Counted from the stretch's first letter, positions 31,207 to 49,098 are shown. The stretch: 64,000 nt of DNA from Steroidobacteraceae bacterium (GCA_050738635.1 JBOIAB010000120.1:79-64078); one strand, 5' to 3'. Notes: generated by a model not told the origin, from the letters alone. Program-made: numbers and translations.

Positions 31207-32691
31207 ATGCTGTCGATACTGCTGGGCCATTCCTATTTCCTGCGCCTCGACCCGAAGCAGTGGCAGCGCGCCAAGCCCTATCCCCCGCTCGCCACTCTGC
31301 AGGTCGCAGCGAAGCTGCGGGCTCTGGGCCACCGTGTGGCCTTCTTCGATGCGATGCTGGCGGACGGCACCGCGCAATACGAGCGCCAGCTGCACACTCT
31401 CGAGCCGCAGCTCGTGCTGCTCTATGAGGACAACTACAATTTCCTGACCAAGATGTGCCTCGAGCGAATGCGCGAGGCCGCTTGCCGGATGATCACTCTC
31501 GCGAAGCGCGCCGGTGCCCGGGTGATCGCCGCCGGCTCCGACGCCACCGACGAGCCGAACGCCTACCTGACAGCAGGCGCCGATGCCGTTCTCGCCGGCG
31601 AAGGCATCGAAGCGCTCGAGGTCCTGCTACAGCGGCTCGATGGCCACCCGGCCATCGACTGCGCGGCGCTCACCGCGGAAGTCACGGGCGTGATCGGCCG
31701 CGGCTGCGAGGCAAAAGCCGCCCGGCGGACACGAGTCTCCATCCCACCGGCACGCGGCGAGCTGCCGGCGCCCGCCTGGGATCTGATCGACGTCGACCAC
31801 TACCGGGCCATCTGGCGGCGCGCGCACGGTCGCTTCAGCCTGAACATGGCCTCCTCCCGCGGCTGCTCCTTCCGCTGCGCCTGGTGCGCGAAGCCGATCT
31901 GGGGCAACCACTACCTGCAGCGCCCCGCGGCCGAAGTCGCGGCCGAGATGGCCCGTATCAAGCGCGAGATCGCTCCGGATCACATCTGGTTTGCCGATGA
32001 CATCTTCGGCTTCCGCGTCGACTGGGTGAACGAATTCGCCACCGCCCTCGCCGCTTCGGGCGGCGGCATACCATTCACCATTCAGACGCGCGCCGATCTC
32101 ATCAGCGAACGCATGGCGGCGGCGCTGGGCGCGGCCGGCTGTCAGGAGGCATGGCTCGGCGCGGAAAGCGGCAGCCAGCGCGTGCTCGATGCGATGAACA
32201 AAGGCATCCGCGTCGCGGAGACCCATGCCGCGCGCGCCCGGCTCGGTGCCGCCGGCATCCGGGTGGGCTTCTTCATCCAGCTCGGTTACCTCGGCGAGGA
32301 GCTGCCCGATATTCTCGCGACCCGCGATCTCCTCGAGACCGCGTGCCCCGACGATGTCGGAGTCAGCGTCGCCTATCCTCTGCCGGGCACCCGGTTCCAC
32401 GAGCTCGTGCGCGCGCAGTTGGGTGTAAAAACCCACTGGCAGGCGAGCGGCGAGCTCGCCATGATGTTTCCCGGCACGTATACGACTCCTTTCTACCGCG
32501 AGGTGCGCGATCTGCTGCACGAGGAAGTGCGGCTCTCGACCCAACACGGGGCTCTGCGCGGCAGCAGCGCCCGGGCGCGGCGCTCGCTGCGGCGCCGTTG
32601 GGATCGGCTCCTAGCCCGGCAGGGAAGCTTTCTCAACACGACGCCCGCGACGGTTGCGGACACCGCGGCGCCGGCAATCGGTCTGCCTTGA
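31207..32691 (+). CDS. B12-binding-domain radical SAM protein (class B)
   Basis: The N-terminal region is a cobalamin-binding Rossmann-like domain (MLSILLGHSYFLRLDPKQ..., ALGHRVAFFD). The radical SAM cluster motif is SRGCSFRCAWCAKP. The start is trimmed to ATG at 31207. Confidence 0.9.
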   Translation: MLSILLGHSYFLRLDPKQWQRAKPYPPLATLQVAAKLRALGHRVAFFDAMLADGTAQYERQLHTLEPQLVLLYEDNYNFLTKMCLERMREAACRMITLAKRAGARVIAAGSDATDEPNAYLTAGADAVLAGEGIEALEVLLQRLDGHPAIDCAALTAEVTGVIGRGCEAKAARRTRVSIPPARGELPAPAWDLIDVDHYRAIWRRAHGRFSLNMASSRGCSFRCAWCAKPIWGNHYLQRPAAEVAAEMARIKREIAPDHIWFADDIFGFRVDWVNEFATALAASGGGIPFTIQTRADLISERMAAALGAAGCQEAWLGAESGSQRVLDAMNKGIRVAETHAARARLGAAGIRVGFFIQLGYLGEELPDILATRDLLETACPDDVGVSVAYPLPGTRFHELVRAQLGVKTHWQASGELAMMFPGTYTTPFYREVRDLLHEEVRLSTQHGALRGSSARARRSLRRRWDRLLARQGSFLNTTPATVADTAAPAIGLP

Positions 32692-32700
32692 GAGCACGCC

Positions 32701-47444: not shown

Positions 47445-48112
47445 TTGCGCGCCCGCAGCGCGAGTACGACCGGCAGGCCGTGCCAGCGGCGGTAGAATTC
47501 GGGCGAGCCGGGGAAAGTCTCCCGCAGCTCCATGCCGACGCGGACCTCGCGCACCGCGTCCACCGTGAGGCCGACGGCAGCGGCGGCATGCACGTGCGCC
47601 GCGACTCCATGCATGTGGTGGGGGACGGAATGCTCCTCGCCGTTCGCGTCGCAGAACCGTCGCGTGTGTCCCGCCGCCACGGCCTGCGGATGAAAATCCG
47701 AGTACACGAGCGTGCCCCGGGGAGCGAGCACGCGCGCCACCTGTCCCAGCCACGCTTCCAAATCCGGCGCGTGCCCGACCGCCAGTCCGCAGAGCACGAC
47801 ATCGAACTTCGCGCCGGCGAACGGCAGCCGCAGCATGCTTCCCTGGACTGCCGCCGCGCCTGCGACCTGACGCAACATCTGCGGCGAGCGATCCAGCGCC
47901 AGCACGCTGGCCGCGCCCGCGGCGGCGGCAAGCCGCGCATAGCGGCCCGAGCCACAGGCGAGATCCAACACGTGGCGCCCGCCCAGCGGCGGGCAAAGCG
48001 CCCGCATCACTTCCTCTTCGGCACGCATCAGCGGGTTGTGCGGCACCGGCGGGTAGCTTTCGGCCCAGCGTTCGTAGAGCCGCAGGGTCACCTGCTCCTC
48101 AGGGGCGCTCAT
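47441..48112 (-). CDS. Class I SAM-dependent methyltransferase
   Basis: SAM motif I is HVLDLACGSGRYARLAA. ATG at 48112 forms an ATGA overlap with the upstream stop. Confidence 0.85.
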   Translation of the reverse strand: MSAPEEQVTLRLYERWAESYPPVPHNPLMRAEEEVMRALCPPLGGRHVLDLACGSGRYARLAAAAGAASVLALDRSPQMLRQVAGAAAVQGSMLRLPFAGAKFDVVLCGLAVGHAPDLEAWLGQVARVLAPRGTLVYSDFHPQAVAAGHTRRFCDANGEEHSVPHHMHGVAAHVHAAAAVGLTVDAVREVRVGMELRETFPGSPEFYRRWHGLPVVLALRARK

Positions 48113-49098
48113 GCGTGCTCCCGCCACATCGAGCAGACACAGGTCGTGCACTCGCGCCGGCCGCCGACACGGATGGAGGCGCGCAGCGCCGTCATGTCGG
48201 CACAGTTCAGCGCCTCATCGAGCCCATTGCGCACCCGCGCATCACTCGGTCCGGAGATGAAGAAGCACGGACTGACACGCCCTTGCGCGTCCACCACGGC
48301 CGAGAACTCCGGTGCGTTGCAGCGGACCGGCGGATAGGCGCCCATGCCGCACACCGCGGCGAAGTACTGTTGGATGCGCCGCAGCTTCGCGGGACTCTCG
48401 GCAATGAATCCGGAGCGGAAGGCCTCGGCACGGTCGAGCTCCAGGGCGCGGATCAGGCGCTCGAGCTCCGGGAGGTCCACCGGACGCAGGGCGAGATCCG
48501 AGTCGAATCCCTCGCTGCGGGCGAACGCGTGTGGATTGGCGACATCCACCGCCAGGAAGGAGACCTGCAAGGCCCCCAACCGGCGGGTGAGATCCACGAA
48601 GGAAGCCAGCTGCCAGAAGTTGGCGCGCTGCAGCGTCACGCGCACAGTGACGCGTGCACCGCTGTCCGAGGCCGCACGGATACCTCGACAGACGACATCG
48701 AAGGCATCGACGCCGCGGATCGAGGCATAGGTCGGCGCATCGGTTCCGTCGAGAGAGACCGTGATCGTGCTGAAGAGGCTCCCGACCCGCCGCGCGTACT
48801 TGGCGAGCGAGAGCCCCGAAGTCAGCAGCCACACCTCCAGGCCCTCGTCGGCGAGGAGCGCGGCGATCTGCTCCCACTGACGATTGAGGAGCGGCTCGCC
48901 GCCCGAGAGCATGACGGTGCGGGTGCCCAGCCGGCGCAGGCTCGGCAGCAGGCGGGAAACGGCGGCAAGGTCGAGATCGGCGCGTCCGTTGCGCCAGTAG
49001 TCGCACGTCCTGCACCGGGAATTACAGCGCTCGCTCAGGTACAGCGTCACGAGCGGCAGGCGCCGGAGCGCATCGGGTTCGCGCGGCAGGACTGACAA
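48109..49098 (-). CDS. Radical SAM protein with SPASM/twitch-like C-terminal Cys cluster
   Basis: The radical SAM motif is SERCNSRCRTCDYW. The C-terminal cysteines are CNAPEFSAVVDAQGRVSPCFF...CTTCVC. There is no room for an N-terminal RRE/PqqD-like domain. The start is uncertain: TTG at 49098, or the GTG 7 codons before the first Cys. Confidence 0.75.
   Translation of the reverse strand: MSVLPREPDALRRLPLVTLYLSERCNSRCRTCDYWRNGRADLDLAAVSRLLPSLRRLGTRTVMLSGGEPLLNRQWEQIAALLADEGLEVWLLTSGLSLAKYARRVGSLFSTITVSLDGTDAPTYASIRGVDAFDVVCRGIRAASDSGARVTVRVTLQRANFWQLASFVDLTRRLGALQVSFLAVDVANPHAFARSEGFDSDLALRPVDLPELERLIRALELDRAEAFRSGFIAESPAKLRRIQQYFAAVCGMGAYPPVRCNAPEFSAVVDAQGRVSPCFFISGPSDARVRNGLDEALNCADMTALRASIRVGGRRECTTCVCSMWREHA

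Follow-up and report, generated by a model that had tools for sequence, protein, structure and literature searches.

Our results indicate that about 22 kb of DNA with about 20 genes, in the genome of a Steroidobacteraceae soil bacterium, is a real and widely conserved gene set (Table 1). Its larger part is an island of 16 genes (G1 to G16), which an earlier note had taken for one functional unit within the window, that is, the whole 64,000 nucleotides analysed here; co-occurrence of the genes in other genomes and a common promoter motif support that view. We propose, tentatively and with a probability of roughly 0.45, that its own stress-type ECF sigma factor governs the unit as a regulon, and that the unit directs synthesis and export of an ECF-induced, heavily methylated and acylated envelope glycoconjugate, possibly phospho-linked. 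If this is true, the molecule matches no described pathway. The chemistry suggested here for the enzymes is drawn throughout from superfamily membership.

Table 1. Features of the gene unit and their positions in the window.
Feature	Position	Strand	Basis and remarks
Whole unit, ~22 kb, ~20 genes	about 27273-49135		
ECF-type motif, sigma gene	27273..27301	+	TGAACC-N16-GTACACA; 5 nt upstream of first ATG
ECF (group 4) sigma factor	27307..27933	+	Pfam Sigma70_r2/r4_2/ECF; start 27307 or downstream ATG
Anti-sigma factor	27948..28652	+	HxxxCxxC (zinc-type) motif; sequence and hydropathy
Subtilisin-family (S8) peptidase	28654..30087	+	Pfam Peptidase_S8, E 3e-28; lipoprotein signal LLAGC (lipobox in sequence)
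Secreted protein, 365 aa	30015..31112	-	Signal peptide; no family match
ECF-type motif, putative outer-membrane protein gene	31137..31166	-	
ECF-type motif, G1-G4 operon	31170..31198	+	8 nt before ATG; upstream of G1 homologues in 36 loci
G1, cobalamin-dependent (class B) radical SAM, core	31207..32691	+	Pfam B12-binding and Radical_SAM; CSFRCAWC
G2, PF14907 nucleotidyltransferase-fold, core	32701..33933	+	Pfam, E 3e-34
G3, class I SAM methyltransferase, core	33944..34750	+	Pfam; in 62/83 loci
G4, class I SAM methyltransferase-like	34768..35532	+	Pfam 26.4 bits, cutoff 27; IFDFGAGAG; start possibly 34747
G5, GT4-type glycosyltransferase, deep-core family	35544..36680	-	Pfam Glycos_transf_1/Glyco_transf_4; start between 36647 and 36680
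G6, HprK/PEPCK-fold P-loop kinase-like, core anchor	36661..37719	-	GDSGAGKST; PF27840 'ScmC' family
ECF-type motif, G6	37725..37753	-	GAATCC variant; 5 nt before GTG
ECF-type motif, G7-G8 operon	37783..37811	+	
G7, flavin-reductase-like, deep-core family	37851..38807	+	Pfam Flavin_Reduct; start 37839 or 37851
G8, membrane di-iron hydroxylase, lineage-specific	38821..39933	+	Pfam FA_hydroxylase; His boxes HRLEH, HKFHH, HRLHH
G9, acyltransferase-3 membrane protein, lineage-specific	39831..40949	-	Pfam Acyl_transf_3; in 19/83 loci
G10, fused transmembrane-plus-ATPase ABC exporter	40946..42748	-	MsbA/PglK/HepA-like; Pfam ABC_membrane and ABC_tran
G11, GT2 glycosyltransferase	42745..43599	-	Pfam Glycos_transf_2
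G12, GT4-type glycosyltransferase, deep-core family	43596..44714	-	Pfam Glycos_transf_1/Glyco_transf_4
G13, second cobalamin-dependent radical SAM, deep-core family	44725..46236	-	Pfam B12-binding and Radical_SAM; CRFRCTFC
G14, amidohydrolase, TRZ/ATZ-deaminase branch	46233..47444	-	Pfam Amidohydro_1; HxH metal motif
G15, class I SAM methyltransferase	47441..48112	-	Pfam
G16, radical SAM, C-terminal Cys cluster, lineage-specific	48109..49098	-	Pfam Radical_SAM; CNSRCRTC; in 8/83 loci
ECF-type motif, eight-gene G16-to-G9 operon	49107..49135	-	Marks right-hand boundary of unit

The island had been thought to begin at 31207. This left edge proved wrong: the sigma/anti-sigma/S8 peptidase operon and the divergent gene for a putative outer-membrane protein belong to the unit through the promoter motif that they have in common with the island. 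TGAACC-N16/17-GYACYYAC stands before each operon of the unit and nowhere else in the 64 kb, the six transcription units being the sigma operon (the sigma gene's own copy included), the putative outer-membrane protein gene, G1-G4, G6-G5, G7-G8 and G16-to-G9. Five exact matches occur in the 64 kb against 0.04 expected, each directly upstream of an operon start, and the sixth unit, that of G6, carries a one-base variant. No sigma-70-like promoter was seen at any operon start of the unit. Upstream of homologous genes, the motif is conserved in 41 of 85 related loci; it precedes the sigma gene in 13 of these 41 and the exporter in Rhodanobacteraceae. Position and conservation suggest that the motif acts as a promoter, and its copy before the sigma gene probably serves autoregulation. 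With 5-9 nt between several predicted promoters and the start codon, the transcripts look leaderless.

The sigma factor scores 72.6 bits against the NCBIfam sigma70-ECF profile (cutoff 42.9) and matches no named equivalog (best 131 bits, cutoff 236). Hydropathy predicts that the anti-sigma factor crosses the membrane once (residues 110-128), its C-terminal ~100 aa forming a periplasmic domain; its NCBIfam anti-sigma matches are weak, and its adjacency to the sigma gene is conserved in related loci. The S8 peptidase, mycosin-like by NCBIfam at a score under the cutoff, would be periplasmic and part of the sigma/anti-sigma signalling module. The 365-aa secreted protein, found in 36 of 83 loci and mostly adjoining G1, has a conserved N-terminal EPYLAV..GLKCxxCHVNPTGGG and a C-terminal ...LHAFL, and is a putative outer-membrane beta-barrel.

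The 16 open reading frames of the island, in four strand blocks, all exist, with positions that agree with those first given exactly or to a few codons, and Pfam upheld their domain assignments apart from corrections to G6, G12, G14 and G16. They encode two cobalamin-dependent and one SPASM-like radical SAM enzymes, three class I methyltransferases, two GT4 and one GT2 glycosyltransferases (Pfam), an HprK/PEPCK-fold P-loop protein, a PF14907 protein, a flavin-reductase-like protein, an FA-hydroxylase, an amidohydrolase, an ABC exporter and an acyltransferase-3. None of these proteins matched an NCBIfam equivalog at its cutoff, all scores being far below, which bears out the statement that no described pathway corresponds to the island. 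The reported lack of a visible scaffold gene or precursor also held, and Pfam and NCBIfam profile searches found no NRPS, PKS, lasso cyclase or PqqD/RRE among the 16 proteins. The island shows no priming phosphoglycosyltransferase, Wzx/Wzy or Wzm/Wzt, and it is therefore not a standard polysaccharide locus. Consecutive genes of the G16-to-G9 operon overlap by 4-nt start/stop throughout, and the gaps within G1-G4 are 9-17 nt. The start of G6 is probably at 37719, and hence the G6-G7 gap is about 119-131 nt, depending on the G7 start, and not within the 95 nt claimed for all intergenic gaps.

The kinase-like protein G6 is sub-threshold for HprK in Pfam (17.7 bits, cutoff 33.3), whereas the PF27840 label, a P-loop alignment with HprK structures and a PEPCK/HprK-superfamily fold uphold the broader assignment. 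It matches PEPCK across both domains (TMq about 0.5), with an N-domain that is PEPCK-like and not winged helix, so that the ligand of G6 could be a small metabolite and not a macromolecular acceptor. G2 carries a GxxxxDxD catalytic-type motif (..MADLDLLV..) and is 100% identical to a protein of an NCBI Steroidobacteraceae MAG. The best NCBIfam equivalog of G1 reaches 87 bits (cutoff 360). G12, previously described as GT1-like, is of the CAZy GT4 type; 'Glycos_transf_1' is its Pfam name. In G16 the radical SAM domain and the Cys cluster stand, but the SPASM profile is sub-threshold (17-20 bits against 21.5). G8 is OlsE-like by NCBIfam, at 64 bits against a cutoff of 475, and the N-terminal ~160 aa of G7 match no family.

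Gene presence was counted in 83 related loci, and the motif and small ORFs were surveyed in 85. A nearly full gene set occurs in close Steroidobacteraceae relatives (L004-L015, L021) and 10-12 of the genes in Dyella/Rhodanobacter (L068, L077, L081). Acidobacteriota have, between unrelated flanks, a compact core of seven families (cobalamin radical SAM, methyltransferase, flavin-reductase-like, two GT4, kinase-like, PF14907), in versions that lack an exporter. G1 was found in 76 of the 83 loci. Homologues of G7 are present in Acidobacteriota, and acidobacterial homologues are 40% identical to G5 (in locus L091) and to G13 (over its full length). G8 (in 8 of the 83 loci), G9 and G16 are lineage-specific add-ons and do not belong to the core. 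The sigma and anti-sigma genes reappear beside the core in non-syntenic arrangements (L062, L076); in related loci the S8 peptidase travels with this pair, separately from the core genes. The accessory genes are of glycan type. In other lineages HddA/HddC/GmhA/GmhB-like genes (a heptose-like nucleotide-sugar pathway), a transaldolase and an epimerase form one strand run, and thus a putative operon, with the core methyltransferase or kinase-like gene, and an AglJ/ArnC-like GT2 and a GT-C enzyme of GT87 lie close by; further loci have AT3-SGNH, sulfotransferase or PIG-L genes, or an adjoining Wza/Wzi/Wzz locus. Close relatives keep the flanking cytochrome oxidase and TorF-porin genes in synteny as well, and synteny alone therefore proves little. 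The grouping is not due to chance, given that the genes co-occur across dozens of independent assemblies and have one promoter motif in common.

A methylated, glycosylated, acylated and exported product, as first suggested, is the most economical reading of these genes. The anti-sigma factor, probably together with the S8 lipoprotein protease, would hold the sigma factor until an envelope signal arrives, and the freed sigma factor would transcribe the six motif-headed units. Two GT4 enzymes and one GT2 enzyme may build a short glycan. By analogy with their only studied relatives, G6 and G2 may work as a pair, one phosphorylating an acceptor hydroxyl of a lipid, sugar or polyprenol and the other being needed for attachment of a sugar through the phosphate; the transfer of a phosphate followed by a phosphate-linked hexose has experimental precedent for an HprK-like/PF14907 pair (PMC6993621). 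C- and O-methyl groups could come from the two cobalamin radical SAM enzymes together with three to four class I methyltransferases, the flavin-reductase-like protein being a possible electron supplier. Among lineage-specific extras, G8 would hydroxylate, G9 acylate, and G14 and G16 modify the product further. The MsbA-like half-transporter is predicted to carry the product over the inner membrane; its onward passage may depend on the putative outer-membrane protein. We infer a non-ribosomal envelope glycoconjugate. The peptide substrates of the characterised HprK-like/PF14907 pairs, the acidobacterial versions without exporter, the PEPCK likeness of G6 and the missing standard polysaccharide functions tell against it.

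A peptide- or protein-linked product is a serious rival, if on balance an unlikely one. The unit would then be a Gram-negative relative of paeninodin-type lasso tailoring and of linear polyphosphorylated peptide (LPP) systems, acting on a ribosomal peptide or protein encoded elsewhere: the kinase-like protein would phosphorylate Ser, PF14907 and the glycosyltransferases build a phospho-linked glycan, the radical SAM enzymes methylate, the S8 protease cut off the leader and the ABC exporter secrete. Class B and SPASM radical SAM enzymes are frequent in RiPP pathways. An S8 peptidase gene adjoins the island, G6 belongs to PF27840 'ScmC', a name taken from a RiPP-like cassette, and ScmF is the best NCBIfam match of G16. 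Moreover, the only characterised HprK-like/PF14907 pairs modify a peptide C-terminal Ser (PMC6993621), acting on peptides and not on glycans or lipids (PMC6993621, PMC13381572), and the LPP core consists of an HprK-like kinase, an NTP transferase and an exporter that is MsbA-like, within glycosyltransferase-rich capsule loci (PMC13381572). Against this, the ScmC, ScmF and HprK_rel_A/B scores are all far under cutoff, the N-domain of G6 is no winged helix and the S8 peptidase does not travel with the core. No PqqD/RRE was detected, even at E up to 5, in the Pfam-uncovered stretches of G1, G2, G6, G7, G13, G16, the anti-sigma factor and the S8 peptidase. No conserved small ORF adjoins the core in the 85 loci, the 64-kb window has no YxxP-type ORF with coding potential, and no lineage among the related loci shows a precursor, RRE, lasso cyclase or leader peptidase. 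The RiPP option raised in the earlier note is thus weakened: the core persists in two phyla without precursor, RRE or peptidase (in Acidobacteriota without exporter as well) and is repeatedly co-operonic with nucleotide-sugar genes.

We consider improbable a soluble glycoside, such as a pseudo-oligosaccharide or other secreted natural product, in which two GT4 enzymes build up a common metabolite that is then C- and O-methylated, while the kinase-like and nucleotidyltransferase-like proteins either convert a building block to its activated form (from sugar by way of sugar-phosphate to NDP-sugar or similar) or serve as self-resistance or pro-drug enzymes. The compact acidobacterial core without exporter does resemble a small-molecule cassette, G6 resembles the small-molecule kinase PEPCK, G1 has weak NCBIfam matches to AprD4 and other sugar-acting class B enzymes, and a phosphonate gene-cluster family also has PF14907 next to a kinase (PMC8942020). 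The only structural neighbour of the G2 AF2 model is the aminoglycoside nucleotidyltransferase ANT(2'')-Ia, but the Foldseek match is not significant (E 0.56). Furthermore, Pfam and NCBIfam reveal no aminotransferase, cyclitol/inosose synthase, dehydrogenase or NDP-sugar tailoring enzyme among the 16 proteins, and the envelope-type ECF sigma factor, the MsbA/PglK-like transporter, the acyltransferase-3 and, in relatives, the GT-C and polyprenyl-P-type GT2 partners point to an envelope-bound product. Tailoring of bacteriohopanepolyol side chains is very improbable. The HpnH/I/J/K/P/R parallel drawn earlier holds for superfamilies (radical SAM, GT2, cobalamin radical SAM, hydrolase, methylases) and fails for equivalogs: the weak matches to HpnJ, HpnR, HpnH and HpnB all score 5-15 times under curated cutoffs (HpnJ 64-70 against 578, HpnR 38-44 against 650, HpnH 46 against 225 bits). 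No squalene-hopene cyclase, HpnG or other hpn gene occurs among the genes annotated at ~22.3-58.3 kb or in the related loci examined; G14, the supposed deacylase, is deaminase-type by NCBIfam, neither PIG-L/LpxC-type nor HpnK-like, and the conserved GT4, kinase-like and PF14907 core has no hopanoid counterpart. It is also very improbable that there is no single pathway, and that several unrelated envelope and tailoring operons are neighbours by shared ancestry as a synteny artefact. The syntenic flanks and the lineage-specific G8, G9 and G16 would agree with this; the exclusive motif, the translationally coupled overlaps within operons, and core genes that stay together in families and phyla with entirely different gene order and flanks do not.

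Several known systems invite comparison with the unit. In the SynChlorMet cassette (ScmC/ScmD/ScmE/ScmF; NCBIfam TIGR04249-04251), the likeness lies in the 'ScmC' label of G6 and the ScmF match of G16, but scores here are 19.9 bits against 125 for ScmC and 70 against 400 for ScmF, the PqqD homologue (ScmD) and a second SPASM enzyme are lacking, and G16 is missing from most related loci. LPP clusters and the paeninodin/pseudomycoidin lasso sets of Bacillota are often embedded among glycosyltransferase genes (PMC13381572, PMC6993621), and the pseudomycoidin pair forms a Ser-phosphate and then places a hexose on the phosphate (PMC6993621). The present unit differs in having no precursor peptide, discrete or fused RRE, SpI or B2 leader peptidase or lasso cyclase, in a core with two GT4, cobalamin radical SAM enzymes, methyltransferases and a flavin-reductase-like protein, in its Gram-negative hosts (Gammaproteobacteria, Acidobacteriota), and in a marginal similarity to named HprK-related families (32 bits against a cutoff of 200). 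The hopanoid tailoring locus likewise brings radical SAM, cobalamin radical SAM, GT2 and methylase superfamilies to a membrane-associated product; here there is no equivalog match and no cyclase, the hydrolase family differs and the core is foreign to hopanoid pathways. The likeness to Arn-type Und-P/polyprenyl-P systems of surface-glycan modification (GT2, flippase and GT-C) is that an AglJ/ArnC-like GT2, the GT-C enzyme GT87 and a nucleotide-sugar pathway accompany the core in some related loci, and that the window holds a GT2 and a lipid/LLO-type ABC flippase; the window has no GT-C enzyme, and the kinase-like/PF14907/cobalamin radical SAM core has no Arn counterpart. Finally, as in RpoE- and SigM-type ECF envelope regulons, a group 4 sigma factor is co-transcribed with a single-pass HxxxCxxC anti-sigma factor from a predicted autoregulatory promoter with an AAC-containing -35 element, and the targets are envelope biosynthesis and export. 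The sigma factor is, in contrast, outside the named equivalogs, several predicted promoters and their start codons are 5-9 nt apart, a periplasmic S8 lipoprotein protease is linked, and the targets form a dedicated cluster instead of general stress genes.

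Gene calls based on GC3 and on a codon model, together with inspection of start codons, recovered the sixteen genes G1-G16 in the four strand blocks described in the earlier note, and Pfam and NCBIfam HMM searches confirmed the domains that it had assigned to their products. Raw ORF lists are noisy because the window has a G+C content of about 67%, and for the sigma gene, G4, G5, G8 and G10 the true start could lie a few codons away from the position called. The count of three glycosyltransferases stands, as do the GT4 and GT2 assignments, but the label 'GT1-like' was a naming slip, given that G5 and G12 are both of the GT4 type. 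None of the genes reached the cutoff of an NCBIfam equivalog; the best NCBIfam match of the exporter G10 is MsbA, with 227 bits, under the equivalog cutoff. The 3' ends overlap in two convergent gene pairs, namely the S8 peptidase and outer-membrane protein genes (73 nt, 30015-30087) and G8/G9 (103 nt, 39831-39933), the latter overlap being found also in the related locus L004 (7749-7851). The amidohydrolase G14 weakly matches the 5'-deoxyadenosine deaminase, MTA/SAH deaminase and aminofutalosine deaminase families. Judging from its sequence, it could deaminate inhibitory by-products of the SAM enzymes (5'-deoxyadenosine or SAH) and so recycle them, rather than act on the product.

Genes of the unit and one further gene of related loci. 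The last column gives the number of the 83 G6-bearing loci that carry each gene; these counts are lower bounds because many loci are MAG fragments.
Gene	Assignment	Position	Strand	Searches	Loci (of 83)
Sigma gene	ECF sigma factor; Sigma70_r2 and r4_2, ECF superfamily model above cutoff	27307-27933
Anti-sigma gene	Anti-sigma factor, HxxxCxxC, single-pass; directly 3' of sigma gene	27948-28652
S8 peptidase	S8 peptidase, lipoprotein signal	28654-30087
Outer-membrane protein (putative)	365-aa secreted protein, divergent, without Pfam or NCBIfam match	30015-31112	-		at least 36
G1	B12-binding and radical SAM, CSFRCAWC			Pfam/NCBIfam	at least 76
G2	PF14907, E 2.9e-34, 119 bits vs cutoff 31			Pfam	at least 68
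G3	Class I methyltransferase			Pfam/NCBIfam	at least 62
G4	Class I methyltransferase			Pfam/NCBIfam	at least 31
G5	GT4-type (Glycos_transf_1)			Pfam/NCBIfam	at least 32
G7	Flavin-reductase-like domain			Pfam/NCBIfam	at least 22
G8	FA_hydroxylase, His boxes present			Pfam/NCBIfam	at least 8
G9	Acyltransferase-3			Pfam/NCBIfam	at least 19
G10	Fused ABC exporter, ABC_membrane and ABC_tran			Pfam/NCBIfam	at least 34
G11	GT2			Pfam/NCBIfam	at least 32
G12	GT4-type (Glycos_transf_1)			Pfam/NCBIfam	at least 37
G13	B12-binding and radical SAM, CRFRCTFC			Pfam/NCBIfam	at least 41
G14	Amidohydrolase, TRZ/ATZ-deaminase branch	46233-47444	-	Pfam/NCBIfam	at least 23
G15	Class I methyltransferase			Pfam/NCBIfam	at least 16
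G16	Radical SAM, CNSRCRTC; SPASM match sub-threshold			Pfam/NCBIfam	at least 8
c7	Extra methyltransferase, absent from window				at least 37

The genes co-occur in other genomes, as would be expected of the single island proposed earlier. A scan of one genome per species yielded 80 loci, which come from Steroidobacteraceae MAGs and from cultured Rhodanobacter, Dyella and Luteibacter; loci were analysed by tblastn, our own gene calls and clustering, and co-occurrence was counted among 83 G6-bearing loci, many of them truncated. Close relatives retain almost the entire set in unchanged order, and Dyella and Rhodanobacter carry 10-12 of the 16, rearranged and with an exporter from another clade. 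A metagenome scan with an alignment of divergent G6 proteins returned at least eight weak loci, including L091. A divergent G6 branch is found in Acidobacteriota, one member being named Candidatus Sulfotelmatobacter. The acidobacterial clusters are compact, have unrelated flanks and encode two to four cobalamin radical SAM enzymes, one to three methyltransferases, two GT4 enzymes, the kinase-like protein, a protein of ~140 aa and a PF14907 protein; a flavin-reductase-like protein is present in three of four loci and absent from L095. This content indicates that the deep core consists of cobalamin radical SAM, methyltransferase, flavin-reductase-like, two GT4, kinase-like and PF14907 proteins, and that the cluster later acquired G8, G9, G16, the exporter, the outer-membrane protein and the sigma module.

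Between the kinase-like gene and the PF14907 gene of these acidobacterial loci lies the ~140-aa protein (137-147 aa; L091:10594-11037, L094:11028-11444, L095:11042-11455, L096:10984-11412), which has no family match. It does not look like a peptide precursor: conservation extends along the whole protein, and the sequence is similar to the kinase-like protein's N-terminal domain. It may act as a partner domain encoded on its own.

At the level of the superfamily fold, G6 looks HprK-like. Its P-loop region, with an HprK-type Walker A/LVxxD region, aligns to HprK structures, but HMM matches to HprK are only marginal. Both domains of the AlphaFold model (pLDDT 77) match ATP-dependent PEP carboxykinases, the modelled N-domain being PEPCK-like and not a winged helix; HprK and PEP carboxykinases belong to one P-loop superfamily. 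The G6 family is narrow, with 170 clusters at E<=1e-30 among 1.84 billion representatives and a steep fall-off thereafter, and its homologues are labelled PF27840 'ScmC' in the protein database. G2 keeps the GxxxxDxD nucleotidyltransferase motif and has no match in the PDB by sequence search. Its model faintly resembles ANT(2'')-Ia in Foldseek, with structural E-values that are not significant; the same resemblance has reportedly been noted for PsmN, the PF14907 protein of pseudomycoidin. Two proteins from the G6 homologue search, P0249 (735 aa) and P0332 (550 aa), appear to fuse an N-terminal PF14907 to a C-terminal HprK-like domain. They may be merged (frameshifted) gene calls and not true fusions, because the linker looks out-of-frame.

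The island does not begin at 31207, as had been supposed: four genes to the left travel with the cluster in related loci and share its promoter motif. The domain models and the adjacent HxxxCxxC protein identify a group 4 ECF sigma factor with a co-transcribed anti-sigma factor. TGAACC-N16/17-GYACYYAC stands directly upstream of G1, G7, the outer-membrane protein gene, G16 and the sigma gene, and G6 is preceded by a GAATCC variant of this ECF-type motif. In the form TGAACCN{16,17}GNACNYA it has five matches in 64 kb, against 0.04 expected, all of them at operon starts and nowhere else, and no sigma-70-type promoter was detected at any operon start of the unit. The motif is present in 41 of 85 related loci, and the Rhodanobacteraceae G1/G6 intergenic region carries two back-to-back copies of GCAACC-N17-GCACTTAC. 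When the GCAACC form was admitted in a slightly relaxed scan of the 85 loci and part of the window, the sites were concentrated upstream of the homologues of G1 (36), G6 (16), the sigma gene (14), the outer-membrane protein gene (13), G7 (6), the Rhodanobacteraceae exporter (5) and G16 (3). The presence of one motif ahead of the sigma gene as well as ahead of all the operons is what characterises an autoregulated ECF regulon, in which transcription would be sigma-dependent, and the motif-bearing operons delimit a functional unit of about 27273-49135. Spacers of only 5-9 nt separate the ends of the -10-like elements from the annotated start codons of the sigma gene (27302-27306), G1 (31199-31206), G6 (37720-37724) and G16 (49099-49106), and therefore the transcripts may be leaderless or near-leaderless; the G16 start would be TTG.

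DUF2891 and the genes beyond it on the right, and the cytochrome oxidase and TorF-porin genes on the left, lie outside the unit. The left block (22330-27262) comprises a COX2, COX1, COX3, COX4_pro operon followed by a TorF-family putative porin (Gcw_chp) adjoining the sigma gene, and is probably unrelated to the cluster because the synteny is kept only in the close Steroidobacteraceae clade. The run at 49187-55028 on the minus strand encodes DUF2891, a DUF979 and DUF969 membrane pair, and acetyl-xylan-esterase-like and fungal-type glucuronyl esterase-like proteins; it looks like a plant-polymer de-esterification block, and no ECF-type promoter was detected there. A mobile genomic island was rejected, given that the G+C content is 0.66-0.70 in the island vs 0.65-0.67 in the flanks and that throughout the clade the cluster keeps its place next to the cytochrome oxidase genes. 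An Rfam scan of the whole 64-kb window gave no family at the gathering score; although the window has three radical SAM and three SAM-methyltransferase genes, this search thus showed no riboswitch for cobalamin or SAM.

Peptide hallmarks were searched for because experimental work on the kinase/PF14907 pair provides a precedent only for peptides: in pseudomycoidin the C-terminal Ser is phosphorylated by PsmK, and placing a hexose on that phosphate requires PsmN (PMC6993621). This precedent favours a peptide or protein acceptor or precursor, which may be encoded outside the window. The earlier note had recognised no RRE/PqqD domain, lasso cyclase or precursor, and domain searches and small-ORF scans agree. 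For the lasso cyclase, no Asn_synthase or related Pfam/NCBIfam match was obtained among the unit's 20+ proteins, nor was Asn_synthase found in related loci with precomputed Pfam annotation. Pfam searches of whole proteins gave no B2 (transglutaminase-like) or RRE/PqqD match at E up to 0.01, and the Pfam-uncovered stretches of G1, G2, G6, G7, G13, G16, the anti-sigma factor and the S8 peptidase gave neither at E up to 5. No S26 match was found in the unit (Pfam/NCBIfam), whose sole peptidase is the S8 lipoprotein tied to the sigma/anti-sigma genes. The intergenic gaps of the cluster are too short for a precursor and hold no recurrent ORF, and clustering revealed no conserved small-ORF family near the core in any lineage of the 85 loci. 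Among all ORFs of 25-200 aa in the window, no YxxPxVLxHQ-type precursor with coding potential was found, the one YxxP match lying antisense within a gene.

Several lineages carry accessories of a glycan type. G3 or G6 stands in a strand run (putative operon) with HddA/HddC/GmhA/GmhB-like genes, an epimerase and a transaldolase that passes the NCBIfam cutoff; an AglJ/ArnC-like GT2 and a GT87 (GT-C) enzyme are encoded nearby, and in locus L061 an ECF-type promoter heads the run. Other loci add AT3-SGNH, PIG-L or sulfotransferases, or neighbour a Wza/Wzi/Wzz locus. Taken together with the negative peptide tests, these accessories shift the balance toward a non-ribosomal glycoconjugate; the acceptor may nevertheless be a peptide or protein encoded elsewhere. 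A further-reaching and tentative proposal, to which we give a probability of roughly one in five, is that the HprK/PEPCK-fold kinase and PF14907 pair is not peptide-specific and primes a lipid or sugar with a phosphate and a phosphate-linked sugar, on which two GT4 enzymes and several cobalamin radical SAM methylases would then act. The result would be an undescribed class of poly-C-methylated phosphoglycolipids or phosphoglycans, common to soil Acidobacteriota and Gammaproteobacteria and ECF-switched in the latter.

The genes present, their arrangement in operons, the motif they share and their co-occurrence are observed; from these we infer how a pathway to a glycoconjugate might work. The anti-sigma factor would respond to an envelope signal through its periplasmic domain, which the S8 lipoprotein may first cleave, and the freed sigma factor would transcribe five units for biosynthesis or export besides its own operon. 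In the cytoplasm, the two GT4 enzymes and the GT2 would build a short glycan on the acceptor; by analogy with PsmK/PsmN, G6 would phosphorylate a hydroxyl and G2 would enable the phosphate-linked sugar. G1 and G13 may add C-methyl groups, and G3, G4 and G15 O- or N-methyl groups, with G7 perhaps supplying reducing equivalents. The di-iron hydroxylase G8, the acyltransferase G9, G14 and G16 would provide clade-specific tailoring. G10 is predicted to flip or export the product, and the putative outer-membrane protein may complete the route. The latter has a conserved N-terminal EPYLAV..GLKCxxCHVNPTGGGLR (in the window, L024, L040, L076 and others), in which CxxCH is a haem-c-type site. Many related loci pair it with a lipoprotein of ~280 aa (cluster c22) that carries a CxxCH motif and a Big_5 Ig-like domain; this partner is missing from the window.

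If the glycoconjugate reading is true, the HprK-like and PF14907 pair, seen until now in peptide natural products alone, would have a second and probably older role in glycoconjugate assembly, which bears on the actual function of PF14907 proteins, including those of lasso and LPP (linear polyphosphorylated peptide) systems. Moreover, with two to four cobalamin radical SAM enzymes acting on a glycan or lipid, unusual C-methylated components would be expected in the envelopes of the abundant soil lineages Steroidobacteraceae, Rhodanobacteraceae and Acidobacteriota; these would matter to membrane biology and might serve as lipid biomarkers. The promoter motif would serve as an experimental handle: one sigma factor should switch the whole pathway on, and any acceptor or precursor gene still missing should show up among the genome-wide occurrences of the motif. 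Conservation across two phyla and this clean sigma-factor handle make the system experimentally tractable.

Orphan clusters of tailoring enzymes are common, and this unit is made of known kinds of parts, newly combined. The earlier note could name no described pathway for it, which comparison with curated NCBIfam pathway models bears out; in the literature searched, no paper describes this cluster type and only lasso and LPP papers were relevant. Defining features of the lasso, LPP, SynChlorMet and Hpn families were looked for and not found, and the unit therefore belongs to none of them. Unlike lasso clusters, it has no detected cyclase, B2, RRE or adjoining precursor gene. The SynChlorMet models gave 19.9 bits for ScmC (cutoff 125), 70.4 for ScmF (400) and 47.3 for ScmE (400), and NCBIfam found no ScmD (PqqD) among the unit's proteins. 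The parallel with the hopanoid side-chain enzymes survives at superfamily level only: HpnJ scored 64-70 bits vs a cutoff of 578, HpnR 38-44 vs 650, HpnH 46 vs 225 and HpnB 21 vs 379, and the genes scanned, which span ~22.3 to ~58.3 kb, include no squalene-hopene cyclase. As for Wzy- or ABC-transporter-dependent polysaccharide loci, Pfam and NCBIfam detected no priming phosphoglycosyltransferase, Wzx/Wzy/Wzz, Wzm/Wzt or Wza in the unit, and only the distant locus L095 adjoins Wza/Wzi/Wzz genes. PF14907 has been recorded beside a kinase in a phosphonate survey (PMC8942020), and the Bacillota LPP core combines SpI, an RRE, a kinase of HprK-like type, an NTP transferase plus an exporter of MsbA-like type, often inside capsule loci (PMC13381572). 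The unit shares with LPP clusters the PF14907-type NTP transferase (G2) and the MsbA-like exporter (G10), whereas S26, PqqD and a YxxP-type precursor were not found in the unit or window. In its workings the unit comes closest to one half of an LPP/paeninodin-type system, that for tailoring and export, here combined with an envelope-glycan locus under an ECF sigma factor.
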